A DNA stretch of 64,000 nucleotides from Pristiophorus japonicus (Eukaryota), in assembly GCF_044704955.1 (NCBI RefSeq), contig NC_091993.1, positions 117,242,001 through 117,306,000 on the forward strand, written 5' to 3'. A program made the position numbers and the translations under genes. Position 1 is the stretch's first letter, and every line of letters starts with the position of its first letter. Positions 2,223 to 41,800 of this stretch are shown here, in pieces. Under the pieces are notes generated by a model. The model was not told the DNA's origin. It saw nothing but the letters and a program-made list of their open reading frames with translations, and made no database searches.

Positions 2223-2540
2223 CTAAAGTCTAGCGTTAGCATAAATTGACATTTCAGAGTTTTCCGGAGTATCAAATGATGGAGGTTCTCTGTTGTTCTT
2301 TGGGGGCTGGCCTTGAACCTTGATAGCACTGTAGGTGACACTGTCCTCATTGTTAACTGAGTGCCTGGCCACCTCACCGCTCCGTGCTGTCGATTTCTTC
2401 TGAAACTGCACTGTTGCATACGTGATTCCATTTTTGTCATTACTCAACTGGGCACTTCCCTCGCTGGGCCTTTCTGCTGAGCTATGTCGAAGGGGCTTTA
2501 CACTTGCATATACAGTGCTCCCTTCCGCTGCTGAAAATTG
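2223..2540 (-). CDS. Gene A exon 7, cytoplasmic tail with TVYASV, ITYATV, VTYSAI and SIYANA
   Basis: Acceptor T-tract plus tag at 2541-2543; in frame with ORF 2223..2447; four Tyr motifs. Confidence 0.9.
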   Translation of the reverse strand, partial: QFSAAEGSTVYASVKPLRHSSAERPSEGSAQLSNDKNGITYATVQFQKKSTARSGEVARHSVNNEDSVTYSAIKVQGQPPKNNREPPSFDTPENSEMSIYANARL

Positions 2541-5500: not shown

Positions 5501-8500
5501 TACCTCATTGTGGATGACTTAGACCCAACTGACTGGGGTTTTACTGAATTTTGTGAACATCACGTGACTGGCTAAGCCACTCACAATGCTCTACAAACCT
5601 GTGAGAATACTCATGGGTGCGTACATTACAAAATCCAAAGACCGGGTTAAACAATTAACAAAGTCGCATTTCTAACTGTAAGGCCAAGGTCACCATCCCT
5701 CTGTGCCCATGAGAGTGAAATAATGGAATGATATGCTGCTAGGGTTAGCTGAAGAGGGGTGGAAGGAGGCCTGTGTGGAGCATAAACGCTGACATGGCCA
5801 AATGGCCTGTTTTTGTGCTTTAAATTCTATGTAATCCAGTTTTGCAAATTTCCAAATATTATTCAGAGAATTCATACTTAATATCCTTACCTCATCATGA
5901 ATAAGAGTGCCGTCTCCTCTATGACATATTATGCAGTTTGTACCTGAAAAATTACAATGTTACTGTTGAAAGAGCTATAACAGGAACAATTAATATGTTT
6001 AAAATGTACAAACTGACAATGTGTTTCAGCGTGCATAGTCTTACATTGATCTACATTGATGTGAACCTCATCTGCATTGCACACATGATTCCCTACATAG
6101 AGCGAAAAACTGCTCTGGTTATTCTGCACAATATTCAGAAAGCACGGAGGTAACTTTCACCTTCACTGACTGACGCAGCAGATCATCTGCCTGTTGTAGA
6201 ACTCGCCCGATTATCACCCATTGAGTTCTACAAGGCGCTCTGCCAGATTATCGCCCAGACGTGAAGGTGAAAATTAGCTCCCACTATGTTCAGGTTTTTA
6301 CAAGACAAAGACTGATCAATTCTACCCTGCAAATGAGCTCCTGATCTGTTGTGCCATCAGTGGGAGGCCAAACAATTCATCACAGGGAGAAATCAGAGTC
6401 AGCCAGTGGCTGAGTTGCATTAGCGAGTGGCTCAGTGGGTAGCGCCCTCGCTAAGTCAAGAGGTCATGGGTTCAAGAGACTTGAGCGCAAAAATCTAGGC
6501 TGACACTCCTCATGAAGGAATGCTGCACTGTTGCAGGTGCCATCTTTCAGATGAGACATTAATCTGAGGCCCCGTCTGCTCTCTCAGGTGAAGGTAAAAG
6601 ATTCCATGGCACTATTTTGAAGAAGAGCAGGGGAGTTCGCCCCGGTGACCTGGCCAATATTTATTCCTCAACCAACATAACAAAAACAGATTATCTGGTC
6701 GTTATCACATTGCTGTTTGTGGGAGCTTGCTGTGCGCTTATTGGCTGCTATGTTTCCTACATAATAACAGTGAGTACACATCAACAAATAAGGACTTAAT
6801 TTGCTGTAAGGCGCTTTGAGGCATCTGATGGTCGTGAAAGGCGCTCTATAAATCTTTCTTTTTTCTATTGACACCAGCCAATGAGTTGGAGGTGGGGCAG
6901 GATTAGTTTATTTTGCAGCAAACAAAATTAATAAGAGAATAGTAATGCAAACAAAATATATTCACTCAGCAAAATCTATTTAAACAGTGCATTACAGCAA
7001 ACAATCTAGAGAGTCTATTTTAACAATGCATTACAGCAAACAGTTTACAGAGTCTATTTTAACAGTGCATTACAGCAAACAGTCCATAGAGTCTATTTAA
7101 ACAGCATTACAGCAAACAGTCTACAGAGTCTATTTTAACAGTGCATTACAGCAAACAGTCTACAGAGTCTATTTAAAAAGAGTCCCTGTGGACTAGAGGA
7201 ACAGAACTCCTGACCGAAACTACGGCCATTTCTCCTGATGATAACAGGATGATTTCTCCAGAAAAATGCAGTGAGAGAAGGGTAATTACATAATACAAAT
7301 TGATTATTCCTCCAGCAAAATGCAGATAGCTCCATGCAAATTCTGAGCATAAAATCAATCTCAGTCACTTAAAGCAGTGCAGTCTCCAGACGTGATTGAC
7401 GGGGAATTGCCCAATGATCTCCATGGCCGAGAATAGTGGTTTCACTATAAGCAACTGGGAGAATTCTTAGAGGTTGTCACCTCAGTGATCTCAGGTACAG
7501 CATTAGCAGCAGAAAACTGGTCCAACTTGTTGGTCCATGAGTAACATTTGTCTCAGAGAAGTACAGTTGTCTGTGGCAGCTCTTTGCTGGAGCAATCTAA
7601 AACTAATACTAATGTCTTTGCTCACTCTTCAATGCTCTGTATATATCACTGCTTTGTAAGAGTTTACACGTTTCGTAATCAAGCACAGCAAGAGATCGCG
7701 GACTGAAGTGGTTGAAAACAAAAACCTGTGGGACTGTTGGGTGGGAGAAAAAGTGCCAGCCTGGGGCAGGTGGTGACTCATAACTGATTAATGCAATTTC
7801 TGCGGCCAGGAGCGAGACCCGATTAACATCGAGACAAAGGGTTTTGATACAATCAAGCAGAGAAGCCCATGGATTCATTGGCCGGAGGGGAAAAACCAGT
7901 TCCCTATGGAGACTACAAGTCTGCGAAAATCTAGCACCACAAAGGATCCCACAAGGCGTGCATTTTTGGATAGCGAGGCATAAAAGATAAGGAGTTATCT
8001 TTGGTCCTGCTGATTCCGTGCACAGAACGAGGTGCAAATTGTGACCATCCAAGCAGATCCAAACCCATCATTACAGCCATCGAGGCTCATCCAGACACAT
8101 TAACTGAAAGCAGCCCAGCAGGAAACTTGTATCGAATGGATATATATGAAGGAGCTCACAGAAGCAAACCACCTCAGAACAACAGGTCAAAGGAACAACA
8201 ACCACGAAGGGGAACAATGGAAAGAAGAACAAGAAGAGAGAGATGACGAGAAGGAAACACACGCAGGAGTAGAGACAAGTGGAGAAGCAAGCAGCGGGGA
8301 CCCACCATCTTCCCTCGCTCCACGAGCCTACAATCACCAACAGTAGCAACTGGCTGGGCGGGTGTTTGTATGTCTTCGATCAATCTCTAAGAAGTCTTAT
8401 TCTGTAATTTTTAGTTGGTTTTTGTGTAATAAACTAACAGTTGGGTTTAAGACTAAACTTTGCGTTACGTGGAGTCCTTCCTGTAATTCCCGAGGTCTAT

Positions 8501-11500
8501 GAATCAAAGTAGAGTGGGAAACAAACACCCTACAGCTTCAAACCATGAGCCAATTTCCCTTTAAAAAGTCCAAGGGTCTTTACCACTCCCTATGACAAAG
8601 CATTCCATGTTCCAACACATCTCTGAATAAAGAAATATCTCCTAACCTCTCTCCTCACTCTCTTAGTAACAATTTTAAATTGAGAACCCCTTCATCACTG
8701 ACTCCCCAACCAGAGAAAATCGTTTTTCCCCATTCACTTGATCAGGACCGTTCATATCTTTGAAAAACTCTACTAGACCAGAAAATATGAGGCAATTTAG
8801 AAAAAATGAATAAAGTAAACAATTTGTTGTTAATGATACATAGTTTGTATATGCAATGGTGATTGTAAACTTGATTATCATGATAACATTAGGACCAGAT
8901 TTAATAAACCACCACTTTAAACTCCTGTCTCCAAATGAAAGATAGAGGATGGCTTCTACTGTACTCCAGTTGACCCTGTGTTCTAACTGAACATAACAAG
9001 ATGTGAAACATGGTCAAGTTGACTTTATTGCACCATCTGTGGTGAGGTGTAACAACTGTTTTCACAACTTCTTCCTCTCGAAGCTACAAGCTGCTTCAAG
9101 ATTAATTACTTCATATTTGCCATTGGCAGAAGGGTCGAGCACCAGAGGTCACAGATTTCAAGGTGATTGGCGGAAGAGCCAAAGGCAACGTGAGGGAAAA
9201 CTTGTTTACGCAGCGAGTGGTTAGGATCTGGAATGCACTGCCTGATGGGGTGGTGGAGGCAGACTCAATCACGGCTTTCAAAAGGGAATTGGATAATTAC
9301 TCGAAGGAAAAAACATTGTAGGGTTGGGGGAAGGGGTAGGGGAGTGGGATTAGCTGAGGTGCACCTGCAGAGAGCTGGCGCAGATTCGACGGGCCGAATG
9401 GCCTCCTTCTGTGCTGTAACCGTTCTATGATTCTATGTAAGAACAGTAACAATGGGTGAAAAATGAGAACATTGTGGATTTTATCGACTTTTATAAACTT
9501 CTTGCAGCATTGTCTCTGCTTTAGCTGGAATGCCCCAGCCAGCATATGTCATCTTTAGGGCTCAGCCTTTGGAATTTCCCATTTGAACTTAGTTTGGACG
9601 TCAAAGCCAAACACATCTTGATTCCCGCCATACAAAGCTTTCGCTTCAGATAATCAATCAAATTTCAACTGATGTTCTAATCCAAAATATCACGAGGAAA
9701 ATCTTTTCAGCTACCTTTTATTTGTATGCGAGCTCAAGGTGCTCTCAGCAAATACATGCTCGCGTGAATTTAAGGCAGTCATTAACCCACTTCATTCATG
9801 ACCGCCTTAAGTTATTGCTGACAGGAATTTGTTTTACATGTCTTATGTATTCATACTGAAAGACCACTAACTGACACATTTCCTGTCGTTTGACTAGGGG
9901 AAGCATTAAATGGTCAAAAAGAAGCCAGACACTATTAGATTTTACTGGTAAAGCAGCCAGTCCCACAGAGAATCTGCAATCTTTTTTTTCCTTCGGGTAA
10001 TTATCCAATTCCCTTTTGAAAGCCACGATTGAGTCTGCCTCCACCACCCCATCAGGCAGTGCATTCCAGATCCTAACCACTCGCTGCGTAAAAAAGTTTT
10101 CCCTTACGTCGCCTTTGGATCTTCTGCCAATCACCTTGAAATCAGTGACCTCTGGTTCTTGACCCTTCTGCTTGAGTAAACAGTAACCATTCCAAAATTG
10201 GTCATCTGACTCCCGAACTCATTCTCTTAAACGTCTTGGATTTGATCGCAACTTAGCACAATTGGGTCATAAGAACATAAGAAATAGGAGCAGGAGTAGG
10301 TCATTTGGCCCCTCGAGCCTGCTCCGCCATTTAATAAAATCATGGCTGATCTGATCATGGATTCAGCTCCACTTCCCTGCCCGCTCCCCATAACCCTTTA
10401 TTTCCCTTATCGCTCAAAAATCTGTCTATCTCCGCCTTAAATATATTAAATGACCCAGCCTCCACAGGCAGAGAATTCCACAGATTTACAACCCTCTGAG
10501 AGAAGAAATTCCCCATCACAGTTTTAAATGGGCGACCCCTTATTCTGAGACGATGTCCCCCAGTTTTAGTTTCCCTTATGAATGGAAATATCCTCTCTGC
10601 ATCCACCTTGTCGAGCCCCCTCATTATCTTATATGTTTCGATAAGATCACCTCTCATCCTTCTGAACTCCAATGTATATAGGCCAAAACTACTCAACCTA
10701 TCATCATAAGTCAAACTCCTCATCTCTGGAATCAATCTAGTGAACCTTCTCTGAACAGCCTCCAATGCGAGTATTCCTTAAATACGGAGCCCAAAACTGT
10801 ACGCAGTACTCTACATGTGGTCTCGCCAATATCCTGCACAGTTGTAGTCTGCTTTTATATTCTATCCCTCTTGCAATAAAGACCAATGTTCCATTTGCCT
10901 TCCTGATTACTTGCTTGTCGAATCAGAGAAATTTAGCTGATGAAGAACATACATGAGAAATAGGAGCAGGAGAAGGACATTTGGCCTCTCTAGCCTGCTC
11001 CTTCATTTAACAAGATCATGGCTGATCTGATCACATTCAATTACAACAAACACATCGCAACTGCTCACGCTTATCGTTGAAAGACCAAGGCCCATCTAAA
11101 TTTCACTTCCACCGAAACATCTCTATCTTTCTAAACCCATGATGGATTCTGCTTCCTGCAGAGCTCAGAGGAATATTTGCTGTTACCTAGCAAAAGTAAC
11201 AACTTACCTACTATTCTTCCATGTTTTATACATCTAGACTAGAAAATGCAATATACTACAATTGTAGCTGTTTGTTGATTGCAACGAGCCATGTTCTCTT
11301 TATACAAAAGAAGGGTCATCGACCTGTAACACTAACTCTGTCTCTTTTTCCACAGATGCTGCCTGATCTGCTGAGTATTTTCAGCATTCTCTGTTTTTAT
11401 GTCCTCTTTATATTCTGCTGCAAATTATTGACATATAATGAAATTATTGAAGAAAGATAGGAACTCACCCTTCTTGTTGAGCATCAGGTAGAAAAGTAGG

Positions 11501-14500
11501 CAAACAGCAAACACAACAATAAGGGCTCCCAGCACACTGAGCACAATGTAAACCAGGCTGTGGTACAGAGAAGAGGAAAGGGTCAGCGTTGGTTCTCAAT
11601 TGGTCCTTGGCTATTTTCTTTTAAAGAAAAACTTGCATTTCTATAGCGCCTTTTACAGCCTGGGGACATCCCAAAGCGCTTTGCAGGCATGAAGTACTTT
11701 TGAATGTACTGCCGTAATGTGGGAAACGAGGCAGCCAATTTGCGCACAGCAAGCTCCCACAAACAGCAATGTGATAATGAATAGATAATCTGTTTTTTAC
11801 TGGTATTGGTTAAGGAATAAATATTGGCCATGCCTCTAGGGAGAACTCACTGCTCTTCTTCAAATATTGCCATGGGATCTGTTACAGCCACCTGACAGGG
11901 CAGATGGACCCTTGATTTAATGTCACATTTAAAAAAAATTTGTTCCTGAGATGTGGGCATCGCTGGCATGGCCAGCATTTATTGCTCATCCCTAATTGCC
12001 CTCGAGGAGGTGGTGGTGAGCTGCCTTCTTGAACTGCTGCAATCCGTGAGGTGAAGGTATTCCCACAGTGCTGGTGGGAGCGAGTTCCAGGACTTTGACC
12101 CAGCGACGATAAAGTAACGGCAATATATTTCCAAGTCAGGGTGGTGTGTGACTTGCAGGGGAACTCGGAGGCGATGGTGTTCCCACGCGCCTGCTGCCCT
12201 TGTCCTTCCAGGTGATGGAGGTCACGGGTTTGGGAAGTGCTGCCGAAGAAGACCTGAAAGACGGCACCTCCGACAGTGCAGCACTCACTCAGTACTGCAC
12301 TGGAACGTCATCCTAGATATTGCGCTCAAGTCTCTGGACTGGGACGTGAACCACAACCTTCTGACTTCGAAGGTGAAAACAACAAAAGAATACCTGGTGA
12401 TACCTGACAATATAGAAGCAACAACAGTTTGATGCACTATCTGGATTTTATAGTCAGATGATCTTCATAGTCAAATTTATATAACAACAGATACAGGGAT
12501 ATATCCTAAAATAAAATGCAAAGATTTTCAATATTTGTTACATGATTAACATTTATCTGGCATATGCAGGAAATCTGAAAGAAAAACAGAAGTTTCTGGA
12601 AACACTCAGCAGGTCAGTCGGCAGCTGTGCGATATCTTTAGAATCTGGTGTGAACTAGAATTCTGAGGAAGTGTCTGCACCTGAACCATAAATGTGTCTG
12701 TTTTCTCCACAGACCGGTCTTGTGTTTCCAGCAGTCACTACTTTAGTTTGACATTTAGTTGGTGTTTTCTCCTTATTCCCATTGCAACTTCAAAGACCCA
12801 ATTCCTTAGTGTTCACATTGAACTACAATTTCTGCTGCTTGTTGCCTACATCTCGGGCTAATAATACGGAAATCCATTACATTAATTGAGTATTTACATC
12901 CCAAGCACATTGGGTGAAATATATAGCCACAGAATAGGAATTGGAGAAAACCTCCTCCAAGCCCTGACTTAAAACGGCATCACTAAACACAAGTCCCTGC
13001 CATCAACATCCTAGGGGTCACTGTTGACCAGAAGCTTAACTGGACCAGCCACGCCAACATTATGGCTACAACAGCAGGCAAGAAGCTGGGTGCTCTGCAA
13101 CGAGTGGCTCACCCTCTGATCACTCCGAGCCTCTCCATCATCTGCAGTGCTCAAGCCTGGAGTGTGATGGGAGTACTCACCTTGGATGGGTGCAGCTGTA
13201 ATAACACTGAGGTTCACCACTATTTAAGACAAAGCAGTGCATATGATCAGTGCCCCTGCTGCTGAGCTCAATATCCATCCCCTCCACCACTGGCGCATGG
13301 TGGCTACAGTACATACCATCTACAGGACACACTGCAGCAACACCCACATCCTGAGAATCTATTAAATCAACTTGCCCAGCTTAACTTAAAATCACCTCTG
13401 AGCCCAATGGTCTGTACCATCAAGGCAAGCAACGTCATGCGAACACCATCTCCCTTAAGTTACACACGGTTCTGGCCAGGACACCGGGATAACTCTCTTG
13501 CTCTTCTTTGAAATAATGCAATGGGATTTTTTACGTCAGCAGATGGGACCATGATTTAATGCCTCATCCAAAAGACAGCTCCTCCAACAGTGCAGTGATC
13601 CCTCAGTGCTGCACTGGAGTGTCAGTCTAGAATTTTGTGCTCAAGTCTTGGGCGTGGGACCTGAATCAGAGGTGAGAGTGCTAATCTCTGAGACACAATC
13701 GACAAAATTGGTAAATTGGTTGAGGCTTTGAAGAAGTACAAGAGCTTCTGAGCCTTATGCGAGTAATGCACAACAGCTGAGTTACTTTGAGGCTTGAGCT
13801 AGATTTACGTCTTGCATATGAAATCTGGCAGCTACATTAAAATACACTGTGAATAGAATTCCTTACCAAATACAACAAATTGTTTGGCCACCATTTTAAG
13901 TGAGCTAAGCCTGCCCTAATGTAAAATAAACATGTGCCCATCAGCAGCATTTTGAGGTGTTGGCAGCATAATTCACTCTGTAACTTATTAATCAATTCGA
14001 GAAATTGGCAGAGCAGAACAATTAATTAAATTAATATTTATTTTTATGACTTGTAAAACATAAGAATCTTGAGTGTCATAACATCAAAAGACTACATTGG
14101 GGAGGGGAAAATGCTGTTTCTTTATTGTTGCTAGGTCAAAATCATGGAATTTCTTACTTAACACCATTGATCAGCAGATCAAGAAGGTGGACCAGCATCA
14201 CCTTCTCAGAGCAACTAGTGACAGGCAATAAATGTGATCTTGTCAGCATTGCCCACCTCCCTAGAACAAATTTTAAGAGAAGAAACTTCCTGCAGTTGTA
14301 GTGAGCGACACTGAGAATTGGACCAAAGCTGAAGATGTTGCTCACTGGTGATATCAAGGGCTGTGCAGATATATTGCTGCTATTGCTCACTTTCACCAAC
14401 AGAAACTTTACTGTCAGCCCCACACCAGAACAGATATCGGCAAGGTAAGTTTGATAAGTGCAACTCATCATACACCATGAGAGTAGGTTAGTGGTGAAGT

Positions 14501-17500
14501 AATCATGGTGAATAATGCAAAGAGCACCGTCTGAGGGGCGGCAAAATGGAGGTTCCCAATACTCATTCTTATTTCCTACCAACAAAGACAGCACCTTCAT
14601 TAGGAGCTAACACAGCAGCATGTGTAAACCCAGCCACCATTCCAAAATAATAAATGATTATCATCCCTTATGTCAAAATGATTAAAGAATATTTAATCTC
14701 TCAGGTGGAAGCAATGTCGGTCAAAACATCAGTAATGAGAACATTGTACCTTTTCGGCGCTTTGGATCTTGAAGATGGTTTTCGTTTATCACTGGAAATT
14801 ATATTTGTACTTGTTGGTGATACTGTTGTAAAAACTTCACAAGAATATTCAGGTCCTATTGAAACAAGGGAACAAAATTCAGATTCACCTCATTTTTACT
14901 TGTAGTCAACCAAGAGAGCACGATTGTCAAATGGAACCTCACTATTTGAGTAAAAGCCTGGTTGACATAATGGATTTGGATAATTTAATTTCTGTGTAAT
15001 TTTCCCCTCTCTGGTAGCAAGGGGAGATGCTGCTGACATCTGGCCATGGCCCATTGTTACTGATAATTTTTGTTTTTTTCCCGTATCTGAGAATTGGTGG
15101 TACAGAGTTATTATTGTGGCAGACAGCCATGGCTCAGTGGGTAGCACCCTTCCCTCTGAGTCAGAAAGTTGTGGGTTCAAATCCCACTCCAGAGGCTTGA
15201 GCACAAAAATCGCGGCTGACACTCCAGTGCAGTGCTGAGGGAATGCTGCACTGTTGGATGTGCTGCCTTTCAGATGAGACATTAAACCAATGCCTTGCTG
15301 CTCTCTCAGGTGGACATAAAAGACCCCATGGCACTAAAATTATTATAACATTGCTGTTTGTGGGAGCTTGCTGTGAGAAAATTGGCTGCTGCGTTACTGC
15401 CATTACAACAGTGAATACACTTAAAAAAATGTTCTTAATTGGCTCTAAGGTTCTTTGGGACATCCAGTGGTCGTGAAGGGTGCTATATAAATGCAAGTCT
15501 TTGTTTTTAAAGGGCTCAGGATGGTGGACTACAAAGCAGGTATGCCCATTTATGCCCCATGCATACGTATGGGAAAGTCCCAGCCAGAGAGCCAGCCTCA
15601 GCCACCGGATAATGTATTTCTGGGGGCCAAGCAAGCATAATTCTGTCCCGGAGAGTGTCCTCAGTGGCAAAGTCGCAGCAGCAGTGTGTAAAGGAATGTC
15701 ACATGAATACATTAAACAGTCGCCTGCCAATATTGGTAATGGTCATTTCCTGCCTCCAGGGACTGGTTTTCTGAGCTTGCAGTGGAGACAGAATGCTGGC
15801 GGAGAGGCCCCCCATCACCACTGAGCATTCAGATAATTGGCTCTGGTCAGTTGTAAGTAAATAATTTGTTTCGAAATGTAAGAAATAACTCGCATTGGTA
15901 CGGTACCTTTCACTTTCTCAGGATGTTCCAAAGTGCTAAACGGCCAATGAAGTACTTTGTTGAAGTGTAGGAGTGTAGGTTGTAATGCAGGGAAATGCAG
16001 AAGCTAATTTGCACACAGCAATGTCCCACAAACAGCAATAAGATAAATCACCAGATAATCTGATTCTTGGTGATGTTGGTTGAAGGATGAACGCTACTAG
16101 GACATCTGGAGAACTTCCCTATCCTTCTTTCACTAGTGCTATGGGATCTTTTGCATCTACCTGAGGGGGCAGATAGGTCCTCAACATCAAGTCCCGCCTA
16201 GAGAACAGCATCTCCAACAGTGAAGCACTAGCTCAGTGCTGGGACAGTGGTTTCTGCCTGAATTATATTTATGGAACATGCCTTGAACCCACAATCTACC
16301 TGTATCAGAGGCAAGAGTGCTACTAATTGAGCCACTACTGACACGTACAGCACAAATGCAGTTTACAGGTGAGATTTCGACCTGCTGCTGACATCCTTCT
16401 TCTCTGACCGCTAAAGCAAGTGAACACATTAGTATATGGCCAGAGTCAATATTTGCATTTGTTAATTTATATGAATAATTGCTTAGGAGAAAATGCATTT
16501 ATTTCTATTTTCTGACCGTTTTGTTGTTTCTCAGCGCAGCCACTGGTGAACATATTGCTTCCCGCTCTGCGAACAATTAAACCGCTACATTTGAATAGGC
16601 TAAAGTCCTCCTTAATTCAGTACCATGGTCATGGTTTTACAGTGAGTGAGTAATTCCGTTTTTAGCTATTGAGGGATCCAAATGGAGTGAATTTGGCCAG
16701 TTGCAGTTGCTCAGTGACTGAAGGAACTTAACCAGCGACCAGTTAAGAAACATAGCAACATAGAAAATAGTTGCAGGAGTAGGCCATTCGGCCCTTCGAG
16801 CCTGCACCACCATTCAATAAGATCGTGGCTGATCATTCACCTCAGTACCCCTTTCCCACTTTCTCTCCATACCCCTTGATCCTTTTAGCCGCAAGGGCCA
16901 TATCTAACTCCTTTTTGAATATATCTAATGAACTGGCATCAACAACTTTTTGCGGTAGGGAATTCCACAGGTTAACAACTCTCTGAGTGAAGAAGTTTCT
17001 CCTCATCTCAGTCCTAAATGGCTTACCCCTGATCCTTAGATTATGTCCCCTGGTTCTGGACTTCCCCAACATCGGGAACATTCTTCCTGCATCTAACCTG
17101 TCCAGTCCCTTCAGAATTTTATATGTTTCTATGAGCTCCCCTTTCATCCTTCTAAACTCCAGTGAATACAGGGCCAGTCGATCCAGTCTCTCCTCATATG
17201 TCAGTCCTGCCATCCCGGGAATCAGTCTGGTGAACCTTCGCTGCACTCCCTCAATAGCAAGAACATCCTTCCTCAGATTAGGAGACCAAAACTGAATACA
17301 GTATTCCAGGTGAGGCCTCATTAAGACCCTGTACAATTGCAGTAAGACCTCCCTGATCCTATACTCAAATCCCCTAGCTATGAAGGCCAACATACCATTT
17401 GCCTTCTTCACCGCCTGCTGTACCTACATGCCAACTTTCAATGACTGATGTTCCATGACACCCAGGTCTCGTTGCACCTCTCCTTTTCCTAATCTGCCTC

Positions 17501-20500
17501 CATTCAGATAATATTCTCCCTTCGTGTTTTTGCCACCAAAGTGGATAATCTCACATTTATCCTCATTATACTGCAACTGCCATGCGATTGCCCACTCACC
17601 TAACCTGTGCAAGTCACCCTGCATCCTTTTAGCGTCTTCCTCACAGCTCACACCACCACCCAGCTTAGTATCATCTGGAAACTTGGAGATATTACACTCA
17701 ATTCCCTCATCTAAATCGTTATGTACATTGTAAAGAGCTGAGGTCCCAGCACTGAGCCTGTAGCACCCCACTAGTCACTGCCTGCCATTCTGAAAAGGAC
17801 CCGTTTATCCCGACCTCTGCTTGCTGTCTACCAACCAGTTCTCTATCCACGCCATACATTACCCCCAATACCATGTGCTTTAATTTTGCACACTAATCTC
17901 CTGTGTGAGACCTTGTCAAAAGCCTTTTGAAAGTTCAAATACACCACATCCACTGGTTCTCCCTTGTCCACGCTACCAGTTACATCCTCAAAAAATTCTA
18001 GAAGTTTTTTCAAGCAGGATTTCCCTTTCATAAATCCATGCTGACTTGGACCGATCCCGTCACTGCGTTCTAAATGTGCTGCTGTTACATCTTTAGTAAT
18101 TGATTCCAACATTTTCCCCACTACCGATGGCAGGCTAACCGATCTATAATTACCTGTTTTCTCGCTCCCTCCCTTCTTAAAAAGTGGTGTTACATTAGCT
18201 GCCCTCCAGTCCATAGGAACTGATCCAGAATTGATAGACTGTTGGAAAATGATCACTAATGAATCTATTATTTCTAGGGGTATTTCCTCAAATACTCTGG
18301 GATGCAGACCATTAGGCCCCGGGGATGTATCATCCTTCAATCCCATCAATTTCCCTAACACAATTTCCCACCGAATAAGGATTTCCTTCAGTTCCTCCTT
18401 CTCACTAGTCCCTCGGTCCCCTAATATTTCCGGAAGGTTATTTGTGTCTTCCTTCGTGAAGACAGAACCAAAGTATTTGTTTAACTGGTCCGCCATTTCT
18501 TTGTTCCCCATTATAAATTCACCTGAATCTGACTGCAAGGGACCTACGTTTGTCTTCACTAATCTTTTTCTCTTCACATATCTATAGAAACTTTTGCAGT
18601 CAGTTTTTATGTTCCCAGCAAGCTTCCTCTCATACTTTATTTTCCCCCTCCGAATTAAACCCTTCACCTCCTCTGCTTTATTATAAAGTTCTCTCAGTCC
18701 TCAGGTTTGCTGCTTTTTCTGGTCAATTTATATGCCTCTTCCTTGGATGTAACACTATCCTTAATTTCCCTTGTTATCCACGGTTGAGCCACCTTTCTAA
18801 TTTTAATTTTACTCCAGACAGGGATGTGCAATTGTTGAAGTTCATCCATGTGATCTTTAAATGTTTGCCATTGCCTATCCACCGTCAACCCTTTAAGTAT
18901 TACTCGCCAATCTATTCTAGCCAATTCACGTCTCATACCATCGAAGTTACCTTTCCTTAAGTTCAGGACCCTGAATTAACTTGTGTCGCTCTCCATCTTG
19001 AAAAAGAATTCTACCATATTATGGTCACTCTTCACCAAGGGGCCTCGCACAACAAGATTGCTAATTAGCCCTTTCTCATTACACATCACCCAGTCTAGGA
19101 TGGCCAGCCTTCTAGTTGGTTACTCGACATATTGGTCTAGAAAACCATCCCTAATACACTCCAGGAAATTCTCCTCCACCGTATTGTTACCATTTTGGTT
19201 AGCCCAATCAATATGTAGATTAAAATCGCCCATGATAACTGCTGTATCTTTATTGCACGCATCCCTAATTTCTTGTTTGATGCTGTTCCCAACCTTATTA
19301 CTACTGTTTGGTGGGCTGTACACAAATCCCACTACCGTTTTCTGCCCTTTGGTAGTCCGTAACTCCACCCGTACCGATTCCACATCATCCAAGCTAATGT
19401 CCTTACTTACTATTGCAATAATTAGTTTGGATAGACATTTATTTTGAAAATTCATTGATCATATTGTTTGTTTAAAGTAACACTTATCAATAATTGACTA
19501 CATTGTTCTTTCGAAGTAACACTTACCAATGCCACTGATTTGTGTCACATAACTGCAGTGCTTCCCTGCTCTGTTGAAGACTGACACATCGACCTTTTCA
19601 CTGGATTTCTCTCCCTGATTATTTGAGGCTGTGCAGTAATATTGATGATGTTGCTGTTTGAAGGATTGACAATGTAGATCCAATTTATTGGTGTCAGAGA
19701 TCTTTGAACCTTTAGTCGGGGTCTGTTCATACCATGTGTACTGAATGGGTAGGGATCCCTGGACAGACTCACAGAAAACTGACACCAAGCCCCCAGAACA
19801 TGAGACATTTGGTGGCGATAAATATCTAACTACAGGAACTGAGACGGTTTCTGTGGGAAAGAAACAAACATTCAGATACTGACTGAACATTTAAAAATCA
19901 AACACTCTCCAATTTTCAGCACTTCTGCATCTCAGCCAGGGCCTGCCATGTTGGAATCTCACCAGCACATCTCCCTCTCCATGTCTCTCCATCCTCCCAG
20001 CAGCCTGAACTACCATGTCTGCCATTATATCAGAACATAGCAGGGCTCCAGATCGGGTCAGCAGCAATGATACTGAGGATGTGTCAATGTGAAAATCAGG
20101 GAGAACAATTTCTCTCAGTAGCAGGTAGCCAGCCTGCATTGCTGTTTCGTTGTTTGACTCTCGAATGTGAACGAGTTGGGGAGAGTCCGAGAAAACTACA
20201 GCAGAATAGGAGGGAAAAAAACTGGCAGATATCTGTTACATGTTTTGTGGGTCTAGATCACTTTTCTACTCATGCGCTCAGATCCATTGAAAAATGAACA
20301 CGTTCTGAACATAAGAAAGGGAGTAGGCCATTCAGCCCCTCGAGCCTGTTCTGCCATTCAATTAGATCTCGACTGATCTATATCTTAACTCCATCGACCC
20401 GTCTTGGTTCTGTAACCCTTAATACCCTTGCTTAAATCTGTCAATCTCAGTTTTGACATTTTCAATTGCTCCCCAGTCTCAACAGCTTTTTGTGGTAGAT

Positions 20501-23500
20501 TTCCATGAGCCTTCATTTGAAAATGTGTTTCCTGACGTTACCCTCAAGATGCGCTTCAGTTGCCTGGACAGATCTGGAGGTGCCCTTCAGTGCTCACCAG
20601 CCTGGGCCTACAGAATGATGGTGGTTTGCTGCGCTCTGCACAACACTGCGCAGCAGCGAGATTGGAGCTGCAGGAGGGACAAGGAGCTGAGCACACGTTG
20701 TCTGCGGACCATTCCGAGACAGAGGAGGAAGATAAGAGGAAAAGGAGCAGGAAGAGGAGGAGGGGATTGCGACCCTAACGAAGCACCAGTCACTCACATT
20801 GTTGCCCGCGATGCCAGCGTTTCCCTTATAGCTGTAAGGTTCAGTCTGTTACCAGCACTGGGCTGATGTAACAACCACATCCAATGCTGCTCTCAATTGC
20901 CTATCTCCTACCCTGCCCCCCCCCCGCACCCACCCCCGCACCAATCCCACTGACACAAAGCAGACCTGCTACCCACCAACCACCCATTGCTCCCCATCAA
21001 TTCATGTCTTCCCATTCATTACCGAGCAACTGAAAAGGCCAGTTGCCACCCAGCAACCAAAAATGGGGAGGGAAAGTGATGCAAAGTAATATATTTTATG
21101 TAATTCTGCCAAAGAACAGAAAATTAACAACATAACAATTACTCAAACACACACGTGGATACACTTCTGCAATTACACAGCTTTACTCTGCCTTTTCCGA
21201 CCGCTCCTATGTGGTGCAACATTTATGACTTCAGCAGAGGTAGAGGTAGGCTGCTCAGATCCCTGCTCTGACTGTTGAGAAGCACTTGGTCGATGACCTC
21301 TGGGTTTGTAGCCCATGAGGGCTCAGCCAAAGTCTGCTCCACCCGCAGTAGATTTGATAAGACAGGGTGAGGGGGTGGTTTATATGTACAATGGGTAGTA
21401 GGTGAATGAGCAGCTGTACTCACCTTTCCTAAACTGGTTTGGTCATTAAAGAGCTTCTTGGTGTTAGCAGCAGTAGCGTTGTGAAAGTGGGGCGCAGGCT
21501 TTGAGCGTCGTGAGTCTATCTTCTACGATTGCTGTCTATGTTCCCAACCTCCCAACTCCTAGAATTCCATCTTTGGATTGGTCCTTTAAATACTTGAGTT
21601 AAGATTACATCATGCATGTCTGCACCACTCCCACTACCGCACATACGATGCAAAACCCGGGAGTAAATTATTATCGGCCGGCTGCGTAAAAATGCCACAG
21701 ACAGACGCACTGTCCAGAACCAGGGGACACAGTCTTAGGATAAGGGGTAGGCCATTTAGGACTGAGATGAGGAGAAACTTCTTCACTCAGAGAGTTGTTA
21801 ACTTGCGGAACTCCCTACCACAGAGAGTTGTTGATGCCAGTTCATTGGATATATTCAAGAGGGAGTTAGATATGGCCCTTACGGCTAAGGGGATCAAGGG
21901 GTATGGAGAGAAAGCAGGAAAGGGTACTGAGGGAATGATCAGCCATGATCTTACTGAATGGTGGTGCAGGCTCGAAGGGCTGAATGGCCTACACTTGCAC
22001 CTATTTTCTATGTTTCTATGTAATTACTTCCGGGTTTCCCAGGCGATATTGGATCCCCTGCACCGAACATGTCTCGAAGTTAATATCCAGACCATTGCAT
22101 CTTATAGTTGATCCATCAGGAGGTTATGCTGGGGAGAAAGATAATGTCTCAGCATTTAATAAAGAGGCTTCTTTTACCATCAAAACAGTGACCAGCTTTT
22201 CAATTTTCTTTTATATTGTTTGTAAAGTTGACCAATTAACTCATTGATAATGTGAGCCATCCATCATATCAGGAAACCTACAAAATTTGTTCAGCTCTGT
22301 GGATTGCAGGTATTTTTTATTCATTTCAAAGAATTTATACCATTAGTAACGACTTGCTGCTCACTGCTTTTGTTATTGTCTGACTATTAGTTTCAGTCTG
22401 AAGGCAAACCTCTGACAGTGGGACATTTAATACAGCTCAGAGACAGGGACATGTGGTGAGCCTCCTAGGTGATGTCTGGCACAACACCCTGTAGTTAAAG
22501 GAATTGTTGGTCCCATAATACTTGAAATTCCTGGTCGGGAAGTTGGGCAGGCCACGGATTGGGAGTGTGCACCATGAGTCGGATTTCCCCACCTCTGCCC
22601 ACTACCTGTGAGACTCTGCACTGCTGCGGAGCCTCGGGATATCGGAGCTCTCATGTTTCCTCCCAGATACAACATTGATCAGACAGTTCAGCAGAGAGTA
22701 ATAAAGCACATCGCTGAGAAACGTACCGTCAGATATTTGTAGCTTTACAGAAAACCTTGTATCAATGCCAGATTGTGAAATACCACAGCTGTACCGTCCT
22801 TCATCTTCTGAGCGAAGGTCCTTCATCGTAACAACAAATATTCCTGCTGTCTGGTTATCTGTGATTGACACTCTTCCTTGCCGTCCATTTGGGTCATTTG
22901 ATTTTACTAAATATGTACAACTGATAGTTGTTCCATCACACCAATATTTCACATGTGACCGGTACCCATGGTCATAGTGACATTCTATGGAGATCGCTCT
23001 TCCCACAATTCCTCTTACTTTATTTTTTGCCCACAATGCACCTGAAACTGAGGAGACAACATTTCAGAAATTGAACAGGAAATAACTGCTCAATACAAAC
23101 AGCTCCATTTTAATAAGTGTTACCACACTGTACAGAGGAATCTCTCCACTACATCAATTAATACAGTTGAGTTCCTTCTAATTTGTGATGAAAGAAAACA
23201 TTAATGCAGTGCCTGATCACATTCTCAGGATGTGCCAAAGCACTTCACAGCCAACGATTAACTTTTGAAGTACAGTCACTGTTGTTAATGTGCCAGATGT
23301 GGTTCAGTGTTCGCACTTTCGGCTCCAAGTCAGTAGATTGTGTATTCAAGTTCCAGCCCAGGGACCCGAGCATAAAATCTCGGCTGACATTCCACTGTTG
23401 GAGGTGCTGTCTTTCAGATGAGATATTATACTGAGACAGGGTCGGTCCTGTCAGGTTGTTGTAAAAGTTCCCATGGTACTATTTTGAAGAAGAGCAGGGG

Positions 23501-25081
23501 AATTCTCCCCAATGTCCTGGCCATCATTTATACCTCTACCAACAATCAGTAAAATACATGATCACGTTGCTGATTGTGGGATCTTGCTGCGCGTAAATTG
23601 GTTGCCATGTTTCCTACATTACAACAGTGAGAGCACATAAAATAAGTAACTGGCTGTAAAGTGCGTTGGGACGTCCTGAGGTCGTGAAAGGCACCACATA
23701 AATGCAAGTCTTTCTTTCTAACCGCAGCAACAACTTGAACTTGATATTCCTCTCGATTCATTCAGCACTATGGGAACAGCCAAAGGAATGTCCATCCTCT
23801 CAACTTTGTTGCTGCAACCTGTACTGCAGCAGGGTTTGGGGAGGGAAGGTGAACATGGTTCATGTAACCAAGGACATGGAAAGGAAGAGGATTGAGGATC
23901 GGCAAGGGAAGACTCAGGAACTTGGAGATAGATCAATGAGCAGGATATTGAGGGTAGTAAACACAGGATTATTCCCAGTGCCACATGGTAGTCAGTGTAA
24001 GAATAGTGAGATAAGGGACGTGATTCTTTGTCAGGAGAGATGGTTCGGAAGAAAAGGGTTCAGATTCCTGGCACATTGGGGCCAGTTCTGGAAAAGGATG
24101 GGGAGGACTTTGGTTGAATAGTTCTTAGACCAATGGCCTTGCTGGGAGAGCAGCTCGTGCTGTGGGGAAAGAGTTTACACTAAAATGGCGGAGGGAGGTT
24201 AAAAATGTGAAGAGGCAGAGAGAAGAGCTGATAGGGAAAAGAAGATAGGAAAGATAAAAGGTGGAATCGGGGAGGTAAAGGAGATCAGATCAGAAAGAGG
24301 AAGGATTGAAAAGAGGAAGATGCCAAACAGACAGAGGCTCGTGTCAGTTGCATATACAGAAGTTCATAAAGTATTCTGTGTAAAATTGGTAAGCTGGAGG
24401 CACAAATCTTCATGGGGAGGTTTGATGTAACAGAATTAACGATCTTGGCTGAGGGTAGGGTGAGACTGGAAGTTCAGCATTGCTGGGAACAAAGATTCGG
24501 CATAAATAGAGGAGAGGTGGCAGTATTAATCTGAACTTCCATTATAGCATAATATAGTTAGGTTAATATGGGGTGGGAGTGAAAAAGCTAAATCTACTTG
24601 GTTCGAGTTAAAGAGTGAGAAGCAAACGGTTACTTACTGGGAGTAATATAGACCCAGCCTCTAGCAGTGAGGAACAGTGTCACTGACAGAGCCTCATAAA
24701 ACAAGACTTCATCAGCTGTACTTTAAATAACAGAAACAATTGCAAGCTCCAGACATGTTCTGTGTGAGGGATTATTACCACTGCAGTCTTCAGTGTATAT
24801 TGGACATAAGACTACATTAAAAAGCACTTTTTACAGATTAAAATGGGTGACCTTTGCATCTTGATTATGTTACTCGTGTCGCTTTAAAAAAAGTAAATGG
24901 GCCCTTTATTATTCATTACAATAAATAATGCAGTTTAGTACATTTTGGTAAATATGAGTATTTCAACATGTCTGCTGCATAAACCGTACACTAGACTCAA
25001 ACTAACACTGATTATCTGAATATCCTGCTCTGAATGTCACTCACCGGGCAGGGAACACATGAGAAGAATCAGAATCCACAT
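2223..25081 (-). CDS. Gene A: complete spliced inhibitory-type CD300/pIgR-like V-C2 receptor, 415 aa. Exons 25081-25045, 23047-22727, 19850-19527, 14855-14750, 11557-11469, 5943-5891, 2540-2223
   Basis: All introns are GT-AG and the phases chain consistently (1,1,1,2,1,0). Exons sum to 1248 nt = 415 aa + stop, with no internal stop. Order is leader, V, C2, stalk, TM, juxtamembrane, Tyr-motif tail. Confidence 0.88.
2675..3091 (-). mobile_element. CR1 3' fragment (shared with gene C 59255-59675)
   Basis: LRGDLIEVFKI...TRGH motif and CR1 3' UTR. Confidence 0.85.
4371..5114. mobile_element. MITE with 17-bp TIR TGGCCCAGAAAT(C/T)CCGG
   Basis: Terminal inverted repeats; related inverted copy at 40335-41079. 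Confidence 0.78.
5363..5630 (-). mobile_element. Short solo LTR (268 bp)
   Basis: TGTAATGTA...TACATTACA termini, 5-bp TSD AAATC; second copy at 36875-38403. Orientation is inferred. Confidence 0.8.
5891..5943 (-). CDS. Gene A exon 6, juxtamembrane cytoplasmic GTNCIICHRGDGTLIHDE
   Basis: Acceptor tttttcag, donor GAG|GTAAGG, phase 1-0; an open paralogous exon of equal length lies at 60984-61036. Confidence 0.82.
6427..6865 (+). repeat. tRNA-headed DeuSINE/SacSINE-like SINE (representative copy)
   Basis: A box GTGGCTCAGTGG, B-box-like GGTTCAAG, Deu-like core, L2-type tail. Other copies at ~11625-12360(-), 13480-13690(-), 15129-15505(+), 15885-16340(-), 23318-23715(+), 41175-41460(+), 58250-58610(-), 61820-62140(+). 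Confidence 0.72.
6975..7177. repeat. 39-bp minisatellite, 5 full units plus a partial unit
   Basis: Unit TCTATTTAAACAGTGCATTACAGCAAACAGTCTACAGAG starting at 6975, 7014, 7053, 7092, 7129. Confidence 0.95.
7655..8534 (+). mobile_element. Solo LTR (~880 bp) in gene A intron 5
   Basis: TGTA...TACA ends, 4-bp TSD GCTT, AATAAA at 8428; the empty site is visible in the gene C paralog (~62912). Confidence 0.82.
10268..10915 (-). mobile_element. CR1 3' fragment
   Basis: VQRRFTRLIP...RMRGDLIETYKI; (ttcttatg)n tail. Confidence 0.88.
11469..11557 (-). CDS. Gene A exon 5, uncharged transmembrane segment SLVYIVLSVLGALIVVFAVCLLFYLMLNKK
   Basis: Polypyrimidine tract plus cag, donor G|GTGAGT; hydrophobic helix followed by a KK stop-transfer; phase 2-1 fits neighbours. 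Confidence 0.88.
14750..14855 (-). CDS. Gene A exon 4, Ser/Thr-rich stalk GPEYSCEVFTTVSPTSTNIISSDKRKPSSRSKAPK
   Basis: Acceptor ttgtttcaatag, donor AG|GTACAA, open in the required phase, and a paralogous exon is open at 42757-42877. Confidence 0.85.
16747..19418 (-). mobile_element. CR1 LINE, 5'-truncated ORF2 (endonuclease end plus RT), frameshifted
   Basis: IMGDFN (APE), SPGPNG, NVTPLFKKG, QHGFMKGKSC, FQKAFDKV, KFPDDTKL, RPHLEYC; (tttctatg)n tail. Confidence 0.93.
19527..19850 (-). CDS. Gene A exon 3, Ig C2-type domain (FcR/FCRL-like)
   Basis: VSVPV..VSVFCESVQGSLPIQYTWY...YYCTASNNQG; acceptor tttcccacag, donor G|GTAAGT; 324 nt, phase 1-1. Confidence 0.9.
20530..21700 (+). mobile_element. 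Harbinger transposase and Myb remnants in gene A intron 2
   Basis: TLKMRFSCLDRSGGALQ...VVCCALHN matches the HARBI1/DDE_Tnp_4 C-terminus; shared with gene B at ~45555-46920. Confidence 0.7.
21710..22021 (+). mobile_element. CR1 3' fragment (shared with gene B ~46933-47243)
   Basis: SRTRGHSLRIRGRPFRTEMRRNFFTQRVV plus tail. Confidence 0.88.
22727..23047 (-). CDS. Gene A exon 2, CD300/pIgR-type Ig V domain
   Basis: IECHY...KYWC-x6-C...GRVSITD...FVVTMKDLRSEDEGRYSCG, including the extra CC' disulfide pair typical of CD300/pIgR/TREM V domains. Acceptor ctcctcag, donor G|GTACGT. Confidence 0.93.
23760..24680 (+). mobile_element. Old CR1 5' fragment: ORF1 esterase (SGNH) region and start of ORF2
   Basis: RVVNTGLFPVP...GFRFLAHWGQFW resembles CR1 ORF1 esterase; highly degraded. 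Confidence 0.6.
25045..25081 (-). CDS. Gene A exon 1, signal peptide MWILILLMCSLP
   Basis: ATG at 25081, hydrophobic run, phase-1 donor G|GTGAGT; joins the V exon to give MWILILLMCSLPVSGALW. Confidence 0.85.
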
Positions 25082-38812: not shown

Positions 38813-38860
38813 TCACTTTACCACATTGGTCAAGCTGTGACGAACCGATTCATTGAGTAA
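38813..38860 (-). CDS. Probable gene B terminal exon LLNESVRHSLTNVVK*
   Basis: Acceptor ttttctttttcag, phase 0 as required, TGA at 38815-38813, AATAAA ~100 nt downstream (38709-38714). An alternative weaker acceptor exists at ~39350. Confidence 0.55.
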   Translation of the reverse strand, partial: LLNESVRHSLTNVVK

Positions 38861-41800
38861 CTGAAAAAGAAAATATTTAAGGCGTCAGATTCATTGATTC
38901 TGAGAATGATGCATTGTTTTACATGTCAGTTCTGAACAGAATTCCAACAAATGGAGGAGAAGCTTGAGATGGACTGGAGCTGTGTTGAGATCACAATCCT
39001 CCCTCCCCTATCACTATTGCACATGTGATGGGAAAAGGTGCTAGTTGGGCCCCTCTTGAAAACATGTAACACCATTTACTCACATGCAACAAGTGTTTCC
39101 CTGCAGCTTAGATGGTGGACAATTCACAGGAGAAAAAGATTGACTTGGCTACTTTGTTAAACACATTTTCGACCGTTTAGTCGAGGTTCCCAGCAACAAT
39201 AGCACTGGGTCTGTGTCTGAGCACCTTGGTGCTCGACCGGACACGTTTAACTGTCTGTGTTCTTGTGTGAAAACCATTGTCTCTGGTGCTCGACAGCAAA
39301 GTGCTTTTTTTTAGCCTTTCCCATTTCCTCCCTTCCGTTTCTTGTAACGACTGTTTTATATCAATGGAATGAAAGTCGGAGGGTTCTATAACGGGCGGGT
39401 TACATAGGAACAAAGCAACAGGAGCAGCCCATTCAACCCTTTGAGCCTGTTCCACCGTATAACTGGATCACAGCTGATCAGTGGCACAACTCCATTTACC
39501 CGCCTTTGATCCATACCCTTTGATGATCTTACCCAACAAATATCTAGTGATCTCAGCTGTGAAAATTTCAATTGGCCCTGCATCCACAGCCAGTTCCAGG
39601 TTCCCACAACCCTTTGTGGGAAAAAGTGCTTCCTAATTCTACTCCTAAATGGTTTAGCTCTAATTTTTAGATTATGCCCCCTTGTGGGGATTCCCCCACC
39701 ACGCAAGTAATTTCTCCCTATCTAGTCTATCGAATCCCTTAATAATTTTAAATTCTTTGATTATTTCAACCCTCAACCTTCTAAGCTCTAGGGAATACAA
39801 CCAAGTTTATGTAATCTCTCCTCATAATTGAACACTTTAAGCCCGAGTATCAGTCTGGTGAATTTGCACTGCAGTCCCTCCAAGGCCAGTATTTCTTTCC
39901 TGAGGTTTGGTGCCCGAAACTGAACACAGAACTCCAGGTGGGGTCTGACCAAGGCTCTGTACAACTGAAACAATTTTGAATTCCAATCCCCATAAAATGA
40001 AGGCCAACTTCCCATTAGCCTTTTTGATTACTTTTTGCACATGTGCCCTAGCTTTCAGTGACTTGTGTACATCGACATCTAAATCTCTTTACTTCTCCAG
40101 ATCCTCTAGTGTATCATCCTGGAGAAAATATTCCGATTTTTCTTCCTCTGATCCAAAGGGGATGATCTCACGCTTCCCCACATTGAACTCCACCTGCCAT
40201 AGCTTTGCCCACTCACTTAGTCTGTCTATGTCCTCAGGTAACTTCCTGCTCCCATCCGCACAATTCACGCTCTAGAACGGGAGGGGGATCCGCTCCTCAG
40301 AATTACCGCCTATGCTGTAATATATTGAAGATATTGGCCCTGAAATTCCGATGTCCCGGGTCTGTACGAAGTTTATACGGACCCGGGAAGGCTTCGAAAA
40401 AGCAGTTTTTCAGTGTGCAATGCGCATGCGCAGAAAACCGGCTTTTCCGATCTGTCATTTTTCTGGTTTGACAGATCCATTGCATATCGGGAGCGAGGAC
40501 ACTGGCAGGGCAAAATTTCCGATATTTACGAATATCTTGCCCTGCAAATGTTCTTTAAAATCTTGCGCCTGAAAAAGCAGGCGTATAGCCTACTTTTACA
40601 GGCGCAAGTGTTTAAAAATACACACAAACATTTTAAAATAACGTTATAAAAACACATTTTGTTGTTAAAAACCCTCCCCACTACAGTAAGTTTATTTTAA
40701 GGTTTAATTAAAAAAACTTTTTAAAAAGTCGGGAAAATAATTTGTTTTGTAACAACTTTAATTTAAATGAATGTGAAATATGTAGTGTATTTTCTATTTT
40801 TTATTGTGTTTTGGGGGGGTTTCGCATTCATAGTAATAGGAGTTCCAGACTTATGGAACTCCTATTACTATGAATGAGAATCTACACTACACCTTATTGG
40901 CTGCTGTCTCCAGATCCTGGCCTGCGCACGTCCCCACGTGCATGCGCTGCGCGTGCAGTCACCAGATGCCTCAGGCTCGGAAGTTCCAACGGGCGCAGCA
41001 GCAACAGGTAACTGCGCATATTTTTTCTCTTCTTCTGTCGTTTGCCCGCGGGAAAAGCTCAAACGGAATTTCAGGGCCAATAAGTTACCCCAGTGACACC
41101 AATTAGAGATAAAGCGCTTGCCATGTTGAGTTCTGTAAACTGGATTGAGCCTGTTTGGCCAAGGACTACAACACATAATCTAGGCTGGCACTGCAGTGTC
41201 GTGCAGAGGTATCGCTCTATTGTCGGATGATGCATCAACTGCAGGCCTCGTCTGCTTGTACAGGTAAAGCTAAAAGATCCTACGGCAGCATTTGAAGAAG
41301 AGCAGAGGTGTTCGCCAAAACAAACTATCTGGTCATTTATCCCTTTTGCTGTTTGGGGGTCTTTGCTGTGTGCAAATGTTCTGCCCCTCTTGACTATGTA
41401 ACAAAAATAATTACTTGGATGTAAAGAGCTTGGGACATCTTGAAGACATGAGAGGCTCTGTGTAAATATTATTACAAGAACCACAGTGATAAAGTGAAAC
41501 TTTCATTTATTGGTGGAAGTTATCCTGGACTAATACTGCTCATCACTTCTGGATGGATGCAGCCACAACAAGGGCTCAAGAAGCCCGAAGACATCCAGAA
41601 CCAGCAATCCACTGGATTTTGCCTACATTACAACAGGAACACTTCAAAACTAACTCATATTGGCTGCAAAATGCTTTGTTTCGTCCTGAGGATATGAAAG
41701 GGTTTATATCAATGCAAGTTTTTCTTTATAGTATCTGCGATCAATATTTTTGAAAGAATTGATGGAGTGATTCATTTAAAGTCCGTAAACCCTACCTTCG

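Follow-up and report, generated by a model that had tools for sequence, protein, structure and literature searches.

CD300 receptors have a single V domain of the immunoglobulin (Ig) type. In the clearnose skate (Raja/Rostroraja eglanteria), three receptors named MDIR2, MDIR3 and MDIR5 (ABC86796.1, ABC86797.1 and ABC86800.1) have the layouts V-C2, V-V-C2-V-C2 and V-C2-V-C2, respectively, and the MDIRs were described as a family of many genes that comprises both activating and inhibitory receptors (PMC3031540). The present study deals with gene A, a receptor gene on a stretch of 64,000 nucleotides from Pristiophorus japonicus (NC_091993.1, positions 117,242,001 to 117,306,000 of the forward strand), hereafter the window. 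Gene A encodes a V domain (D1) followed by a C2 domain (D2). It is a real, intact shark gene and a fresh member of a family already known, and its place among the MDIRs is practically certain. In the literature searched (most subscription papers lay outside the search), nothing on this locus was found under shark CD300/pIgR or synteny, and on the family itself only PMC3031540 came up, beside one review in which the name MDIR does not occur.

Gene A and the MDIR family

A preliminary description of the window had placed a hybrid ectodomain at 19527..23047, and these positions coincide exactly with the outer ends of two exons on the minus strand (23047-22727 and 19850-19527). The motifs it gave, KYWC-x6-C for D1 and CESVQGSLPIQYTWY...YYCTASN for D2, were both found. 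The D1 exon (321 nt) and the D2 exon (324 nt) have AG/GT borders in phase 1-1 and splice in frame. With the remaining exons located by homologue-guided tblastn, gene A consists of 7 exons, all with canonical AG/GT borders and matching phases, encoding an open type I protein of 415 amino acids (aa). The order is leader, V, C2, stalk (Cys, Ser/Thr), uncharged transmembrane (TM) segment and a tail with four tyrosine motifs. The exons in window coordinates are as follows:

25045..25081, minus strand: leader exon, ATG at 25081, GT donor, phase 1
22727..23047, minus strand: D1, V domain of the CD300/pIgR/TREM type with an extra C-C' cysteine pair (KYWC-x6-C), 60% identity to MDIR2 D1
19527..19850, minus strand: D2, C2 domain of the MDIR type that has five cysteines and an additional strand at the C-terminus, 59% identity to MDIR2 D2
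14750..14855, minus strand: stalk exon, one Cys and then Ser/Thr-rich (tblastn, splice model)
11469..11557, minus strand: TM exon, hydrophobic stretch without charged residue (tblastn, splice model)
5891..5943, minus strand: first cytoplasmic exon (tblastn, splice model)
2223..2540, minus strand: last exon with TVYASV, ITYATV, VTYSAI, SIYANA and the stop (splice model)

D1 passed the cut-off for the Pfam family V-set with 45.4 bits (E 1e-11). For D2 there were three matches, Ig_3, Ig_C17orf99 and Ig_2, with E between 1e-5 and 4e-5, and each fell slightly short of its own cut-off. When protein databases were searched, 97 proteins were matched by the D2 query (E<=0.001), 14 by the D1 query and 164 by the skate query, 120 of these being examined. 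Since the two exons sit in a complete 415-aa frame of 7 exons and D2 has this number of database matches, a chance origin of D1 and D2 is excluded. The named matches, among those listed, came from 24 species, all cartilaginous fishes (Callorhinchus included), and contained the three skate MDIRs. The nearest database proteins were labelled Pristiophorus japonicus, with 94% to D2. An elephant-shark cDNA has also been deposited under the name MDIR2 (AFK11143.1).

Gene A and skate MDIR2 (UniRef A0S0E8) were identical in 201/393 aligned columns (51%) over the whole length. Compared with all matching domains of MDIR2, MDIR3 and MDIR5, identity was 54-60% for D1 and 57-64% for D2. Gene A has the order leader-V-C2-stalk-TM-tyrosine tail and the cysteine pattern of both domains in common with skate MDIR2, which is 416 aa long, whereas the D1 loop sequences are different and the four tail tyrosine motifs were noted for gene A. 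The MDIR family expands per lineage, and the two genes are not established as one-to-one orthologues.

The skate MDIR records carry the same modules joined as in gene A. In 150 family proteins, some of the longer of which may be fused gene models, 278 of the 295 C2 domains directly followed a V domain and 46 proteins were plain V-C2, so the V+C2 pair is the repeating module of the family. The hybrid ectodomain is therefore real but not a new arrangement, being the basic module of named skate MDIRs; it is not a discovery, since it was deposited and named in 2006. The abstract of Cannon et al. 2006, the paper on this family, is said to have already noted similarity to Fc receptor (FcR) homologues. 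Of the forms that characterize MDIRs, with inhibitory tyrosine motifs or a charged TM, gene A has four motifs and an uncharged TM, while gene B, a second gene in the window, has an Arg-containing TM like that of MDIR5. Both forms are also represented in the surrounding multigene cluster of 9 units, with 5 Arg-TM exons and 4 tyrosine-tail exons.

Relationships of D1 and D2

The assignment of D1 to the CD300/pIgR/TREM-type V domains was borne out by PDB profile matches. The best single-domain score was obtained for mouse CD300f (72.8 bits), while teleost pIgR scored about 101 bits over two domains, mammalian pIgR D1 42 bits in full-length chains and 46-48 bits as isolated chains, NKp44 45.6, TLT-1 30 and TREM2 26 bits. 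The structure model of D1 from a single sequence was poor, with a predicted local distance difference test (pLDDT) score of 58. Cys49 and Cys56 probably form a C-C' disulfide; of 297 distinct V domains of the family, 266 have the first of these cysteines and 281 the second. The KYWC-x6-C motif given in the preliminary description is uninformative as to Ig binding because Cx6C is common to nearly all TREM, CD300 and PIGR domains; the spacing is x7 in CD300LF and x6 in D1 (10.1101/2022.04.21.489081).

Mouse CD300lf (CLM-1; 6c74, 1zox) and its family share with gene A a V domain with a C-C' disulfide, a short complementarity-determining region 1 (CDR1) and a putative Gly/Asp metal loop, as well as the occurrence of clustered paired receptors with inhibitory-motif (ITIM) or charged-TM forms. 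The last 33 residues of D1 (72-104) matched CD300lf 75-107 at equal length. If this match is ungapped, Gly106 and Asp108 of gene A would fall on the CD300lf metal ligands Gly96 and Asp98, which hold a cation that binds phosphocholine (PMC6166816). The metal-site Asp column was kept in 171/297 family V domains. Gene A differs from the CD300 family in its in-frame C2 exon after the V exon, so that the ectodomain is not a single V domain, and in the cluster's charged TM residue, which is an Arg close to the outer face. Lipids, named in the preliminary description as the other candidate ligand, fit better than Ig.

The homology of D1 with pIgR domains speaks for another reading, which we consider improbable, namely that the Fc or polymeric-Ig receptors missing from cartilaginous fish are in fact the MDIRs, with D1 binding IgM, IgW or IgNAR like D1 of pIgR, FCMR and FCAMR, and gene A acting as an inhibitory Fc receptor. 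It is also favoured by reviews according to which cartilaginous fishes lack pIgR, FcR and FCRL and which leave the question open (PMC4016189, PMC13337447). However, D1 scores higher against CD300f, and its BC/CDR1 loop is two residues shorter than that of pIgR D1; His32 aligns, and the position of Arg34, which has a role in Ig binding by mammalian pIgR (PMC4786434), is a gap.

D2 had been called FCRL-like. This holds for the best named sequence match, which is an FCRL, but D2 did not group with FCRL in a maximum-likelihood (ML) tree. Among the best 150 of 2526 representative matches, the top non-MDIR single domains were of FCRL type (48.0 to 40.4 bits, three of them named FCRL5), with teleost multi-Ig proteins close behind at 40.2 bits; "CD22-like" is our own label for six of these teleost-type proteins, one of which is named CEACAM5-like in the source. 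Other exons of this shark genome scored 45.7 and 44.2 bits against the D2 profile. The lead of FCRL is therefore small, since the scores of teleost CD22/CEACAM-type proteins (40 bits) and of other shark exons (44-46 bits) come close to it. The membrane-proximal C2 domains of FCRL5 and FCRL4, which share the pattern PVS.P...CE..RGS.PI.Y...YYC.A.N with D2, were the best named non-MDIR match in the representative set as well as in PDB (43.7 bits). Gene A differs from FCRL in having no Fc-binding domains of the D1-D3 type and in the extra cysteines and C-terminal strand of D2.

The PDB search used a profile of 14 D2 sequences. FCRL5 D4, D5, D6, D7, D8 and D9 scored 28.1, 43.7, 39.6, 24.3, 32.3 and 30.1 bits, respectively, whereas D1 and D3 scored 3.1 and 1.3 bits and FCRL5 D2 was undetected (domain numbers were assigned by a 15-residue offset to the numbering of PMC12757038). 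No FcgammaR chain was found among the 54 matches at E<=0.05. IgG binding by FCRL5 needs no more than D1-D3, and its D4-D9 are flexible and absent from the cryo-EM model (PMC12757038). Judging by these scores, the FCRL likeness of D2 is to spacer domains of the D4-D9 type and not to the IgG-binding D1-D3; this match to non-binding domains argues against MDIRs as Ig receptors. With a mammalian FCRL query the best genomic score was 49.4 bits at C16:128.2 Mb, compared to 30.2 bits at best for MDIR C2 exons, in a search with a stricter first pass whose counts are a floor. A mammalian fragment of the FcR-D2 type (P0288) used as query gave no match in the shark genome.

Phylogeny and structure search did not tie D2 to FCRL either. 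In an ML tree of 71 rows, window D2, the skate MDIR2/3/5 domains and holocephalan domains formed an MDIR C2 clade (99/93) and FCRL D4-D9 formed another (98/97) that was not its sister; the backbone was weak, and joining MDIR C2 with FCRL was not rejected by the approximately unbiased (AU) test (p 0.36). In this tree unnamed shark exons from C16, C2, C3, C11, C19 and C33 stood in for PECAM1, MILR1, C17orf99, SLAM and mammalian CEACAM. The D2 structure model was good (pLDDT 89), and its fold search gave CD22 (Z 9.7, root-mean-square deviation 2.1, 83 aligned), CEACAM6 (8.7), NTB-A (8.7), FCRLA (8.0) and FcgammaRI D3 (7.8), all generic C2 domains within 2 Z units. This search is blind to FCRL5 D4-D9, which the cryo-EM structure leaves unmodelled. 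Foldseek gave no match to the D2 model at E<=0.001. The Atlas feature search scored a cluster of C17orf99 type at 0.94 and a cluster of FCRL2 fragments at 0.92.

Marks specific to D2 were two further near-invariant cysteines (265/268 and 256/268 domains), a third in 154/268, and the added C-terminal strand. The A'-strand Cys was present in 61/75 domains with a stalk Cys after them compared to 34/88 with a V domain after them; in the skate MDIRs it occurred in 3/3 terminal modules and 0/2 internal ones. Its predicted pairing with the stalk Cys is thus partly supported. D2 is most aptly described as a C2 domain of the MDIR type and of the broad FCRL-proximal/C17orf99 kind, to which PECAM presumably also belongs.

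The paralogue cluster and its chromosomal neighbourhood

The cluster that contains gene A lies on the same contig (C17, 117.24-117.66 Mb) and, in addition to the TM and tail exons given above, has 9 C2 exons, 9 close V exons and 8 leader-like exons, all these counts being lower bounds. Stop codons were found in 2/9 units. Gene B, a second V+C2 unit at 48650-44555 that is absent from the preliminary description, and part of gene C were located in the window as follows:

48327..48650, minus strand: gene B V exon, paralogue
44555..44878, minus strand: gene B C2 exon, protein 92% identical to gene A D2
42757..42877, minus strand: gene B stalk exon
41796..41886, minus strand: gene B TM exon with Arg, MDIR5-like TM
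38813..38860, minus strand: gene B short tail exon, no tyrosine, stop
58806..61037, minus strand: two cytoplasmic exons of the upstream gene C (borders approximate), whose C2 exon, outside the window, has a TGA stop

Gene B is open from its V exon to the stop. Its own leader exon was looked for and not found, the nearest upstream minus-strand leader being at C17:117.371 Mb, past gene C; either gene B is dead or it uses a leader that is spliced on from far away. The missing leader and the stops in the cluster would agree with gene A itself being functionless at present, a copy silenced recently within a cluster that evolves by birth and death. We regard this as very unlikely, because gene A has canonical splice sites in all 7 exons and an open 415-aa frame, and its D2 showed a lower proportion of non-synonymous (pN) than synonymous (pS) differences against all 7 stop-free paralogues.

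Among the 8 stop-free copies (28 pairs; the stop-bearing exons L009 and L021 were omitted), mean pN and pS were 0.083 and 0.051 for D1 and 0.026 and 0.064 for D2, and the D1 variation clustered in loops. In non-identical pairs of L015-L020, D1 differed by 9-21.5 non-synonymous and 0-1 synonymous changes. D1 has changed faster than D2, a tendency that does not amount to proof of selection. These strong loop differences among paralogues favour the reading that the same inhibitory MDIR recognises, through D1, variable protein ligands such as self markers or pathogen proteins, the activating paralogues countering pathogen decoys. So do the absence of the metal-site Asp in many family members and the use of the lipid cleft of mouse CD300lf by a viral capsid (PMC6166816). 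We consider this reading somewhat unlikely, since gene A keeps the Gly-x-Asp loop and the selection tests were not significant. Many diversifying paralogues would also suit one conserved Fc ligand poorly, which again speaks against the Ig-receptor reading.

Three V exons of the cluster (L016, L017 and L018 at C17:117.48, 117.53 and 117.58 Mb) were identical in DNA in units about 50 kb apart, reflecting either a tandem duplication in the very recent past, gene conversion or an artefact of the assembly. Directly adjoining the cluster are seven V exons of the CD300/pIgR type (L022-L028, C17:116.99-117.20 Mb) that are more distant, with 34-42% identity to D1. Between genes A and B lies an element resembling a long terminal repeat (LTR) retrotransposon (26764-31475), with direct repeats at 26764-27010 and 31230-31475 (94%) and broken open reading frames that by eye look like protease, reverse transcriptase and integrase. 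A pair of inverted repeats (49172-51765, arms about 1.2 kb, 69% identity) was found just upstream of the gene B V exon, near the point where similarity to the upstream region of gene A stops.

In human, pIgR, FCMR and FCAMR lie between IL10 and C1orf116, TREM and NKp44 between NFYA and FOXP4, and CD300 beside TTYH2 at 17q25. On C17, PFKFB was found at 108.26 Mb, SARG/C1orf116 at 108.36 Mb and one IL10-family match at 109.48 Mb (E 1.5e-4), and on the other side of the cluster NFYA (119.78 Mb) and a FOXP gene (129.2 Mb). The D1-like exons found, 16 in number, were all on C17, at 116.99-117.66 Mb, and none was found with the D1 query between C1orf116 and IL10. The cluster is not in the exact pIgR slot, since at least 7.5 Mb separate it from the SARG-IL10 interval, nor in the exact TREM/NKp44 slot, since NFYA and the FOXP gene flank it on the same side. 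It thus shares its chromosome with the pIgR/FCMR/FCAMR and the TREM neighbourhoods but occupies neither exact slot, which keeps a link with the pIgR lineage alive but does not show it.

Gene A and pIgR/FCMR/FCAMR have in common the homologous V domains and a contig with markers of the human neighbourhood, and gene A differs in its shorter CDR1, the C2 domain of its ectodomain, its ITIM-type tail and its membership of a multigene cluster outside the IL10-C1orf116 interval. The shared contig and the confinement of the D1-like exons to C17 count in favour of MDIRs as Ig receptors, whereas the distance from SARG-IL10 and the closer position to NFYA (2.1 Mb) count against it. In the fullest form of that reading, the cluster between the IL10/C1orf116 and NFYA blocks would be a surviving ancestral cluster behind pIgR/FCMR/FCAMR, TREM and CD300, and the MDIRs the sought Ig receptors, with gene A an inhibitory receptor for IgM, IgW or IgNAR; this too we consider improbable.

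Proposed function and its significance

Phosphorylated ITIMs recruit SHP-1 and SHP-2, and receptors with Arg in the TM segment pair with adaptors bearing activation motifs (ITAMs). We propose, with moderate confidence, that gene A is the inhibitory member in a cluster of paired receptors, in which D1 would be a sensor for a lipid or microbial surface, D2 a spacer and the tyrosine tail a recruiter of phosphatases. This confidence applies to the whole mechanism, whose ligand and signalling steps are all inferred. The binding site of D1 would be the cleft that its CC' and FG (CDR3) loops form between them, and a divalent cation held by Gly106/Asp108 would probably take part, as in mouse CD300lf with phosphocholine. 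D2 and the stalk may form a rigid disulfide-locked spacer that holds D1 off the membrane, rather than an Fc-binding unit. Ligand engagement would lead to phosphorylation of the ITIM-like motifs and those resembling switch motifs (ITSMs), recruitment of SHP-1/SHP-2 and damped white-cell activation, and the short-tailed Arg-TM paralogues would be the activating partners, pairing with an ITAM adaptor.

Several points weigh against this proposal. The contig of the cluster also carries markers of the pIgR locus. All 18 Tweety matches lay on C15, C16 or C4233 and none on C17 (the search had a stricter first pass and did not distinguish paralogues). The short CDR1 is not decisive against Ig binding, because teleost pIgR transports Ig without the mammalian CDR residues (PMC4786434). 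The placing of Gly106/Asp108 is deduced from equal lengths and published numbering, and the metal-site Asp is missing in 126/297 family V domains. Loops that change fast are no less compatible with protein or pathogen ligands than with an invariant lipid. The excess of pN over pS was not significant in single pairs (Fisher p 0.057 and 0.086), the D1/D2 contrast between genes A and B had p 0.15, and the 28 pairs are not independent, three D1 copies being identical.

Copies of an FCRL-like gene were found at C19:58.01-58.03 Mb (L062:4996-9190; L063:271-531, 1395-1685 and 9092-9391), and similar exons at L046, C19:57.9-62.9 Mb, C30 and C1838. A C19 exon matched FcgammaRI D3 (48 bits), FCRL5 D3, FCRL4 and FCRLA and grouped with FCRL D3 at 96/92; this FcgammaRI-D3-like exon is followed by FCRL-proximal-type exons, and one upstream exon of that copy has a stop. 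Further C2 exons of the FCRL-proximal/C17orf99 type were located at L029, L033, L035, L037, L042 and L043 (C16:127.8-128.24 Mb), L030 and L032 (C16:115.19 Mb), L010 (C2:215.27 Mb) and L011 (C3:246.36 Mb). The exons on C16, C2 and C3 possibly belong to PECAM1-, MILR1- or C17orf99-like genes, names that are guesses. Since sharks are said in the reviews cited above to be without FCRL, the C19 copies are better Fc-receptor candidates than the MDIRs, and their presence tells against the Ig-receptor reading. The preliminary claim that the ectodomain links two Ig-binding receptor lineages is thus unsupported: D2 resembles FCRL5 D4-D9 and is tied to FCRL by neither tree nor fold search, and better FcR-like exons exist elsewhere in the genome.

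The additions made by this analysis are modest. About 150 proteins of sharks and rays, under RefSeq names such as "pIgR-like", "FCRL5", "CMRF35-like" and "titin-like" that conceal the fact, form one family, MDIR; the FCRL likeness of its C2 domain is to spacers; and its chromosome is shared with the pIgR and TREM neighbourhoods. How shark antibodies act in opsonisation and secretion without pIgR or FcR is still posed as a question in a review (PMC13337447), and no ligand for any MDIR was found in the literature searched. A binding screen of MDIR ectodomains is therefore worthwhile.

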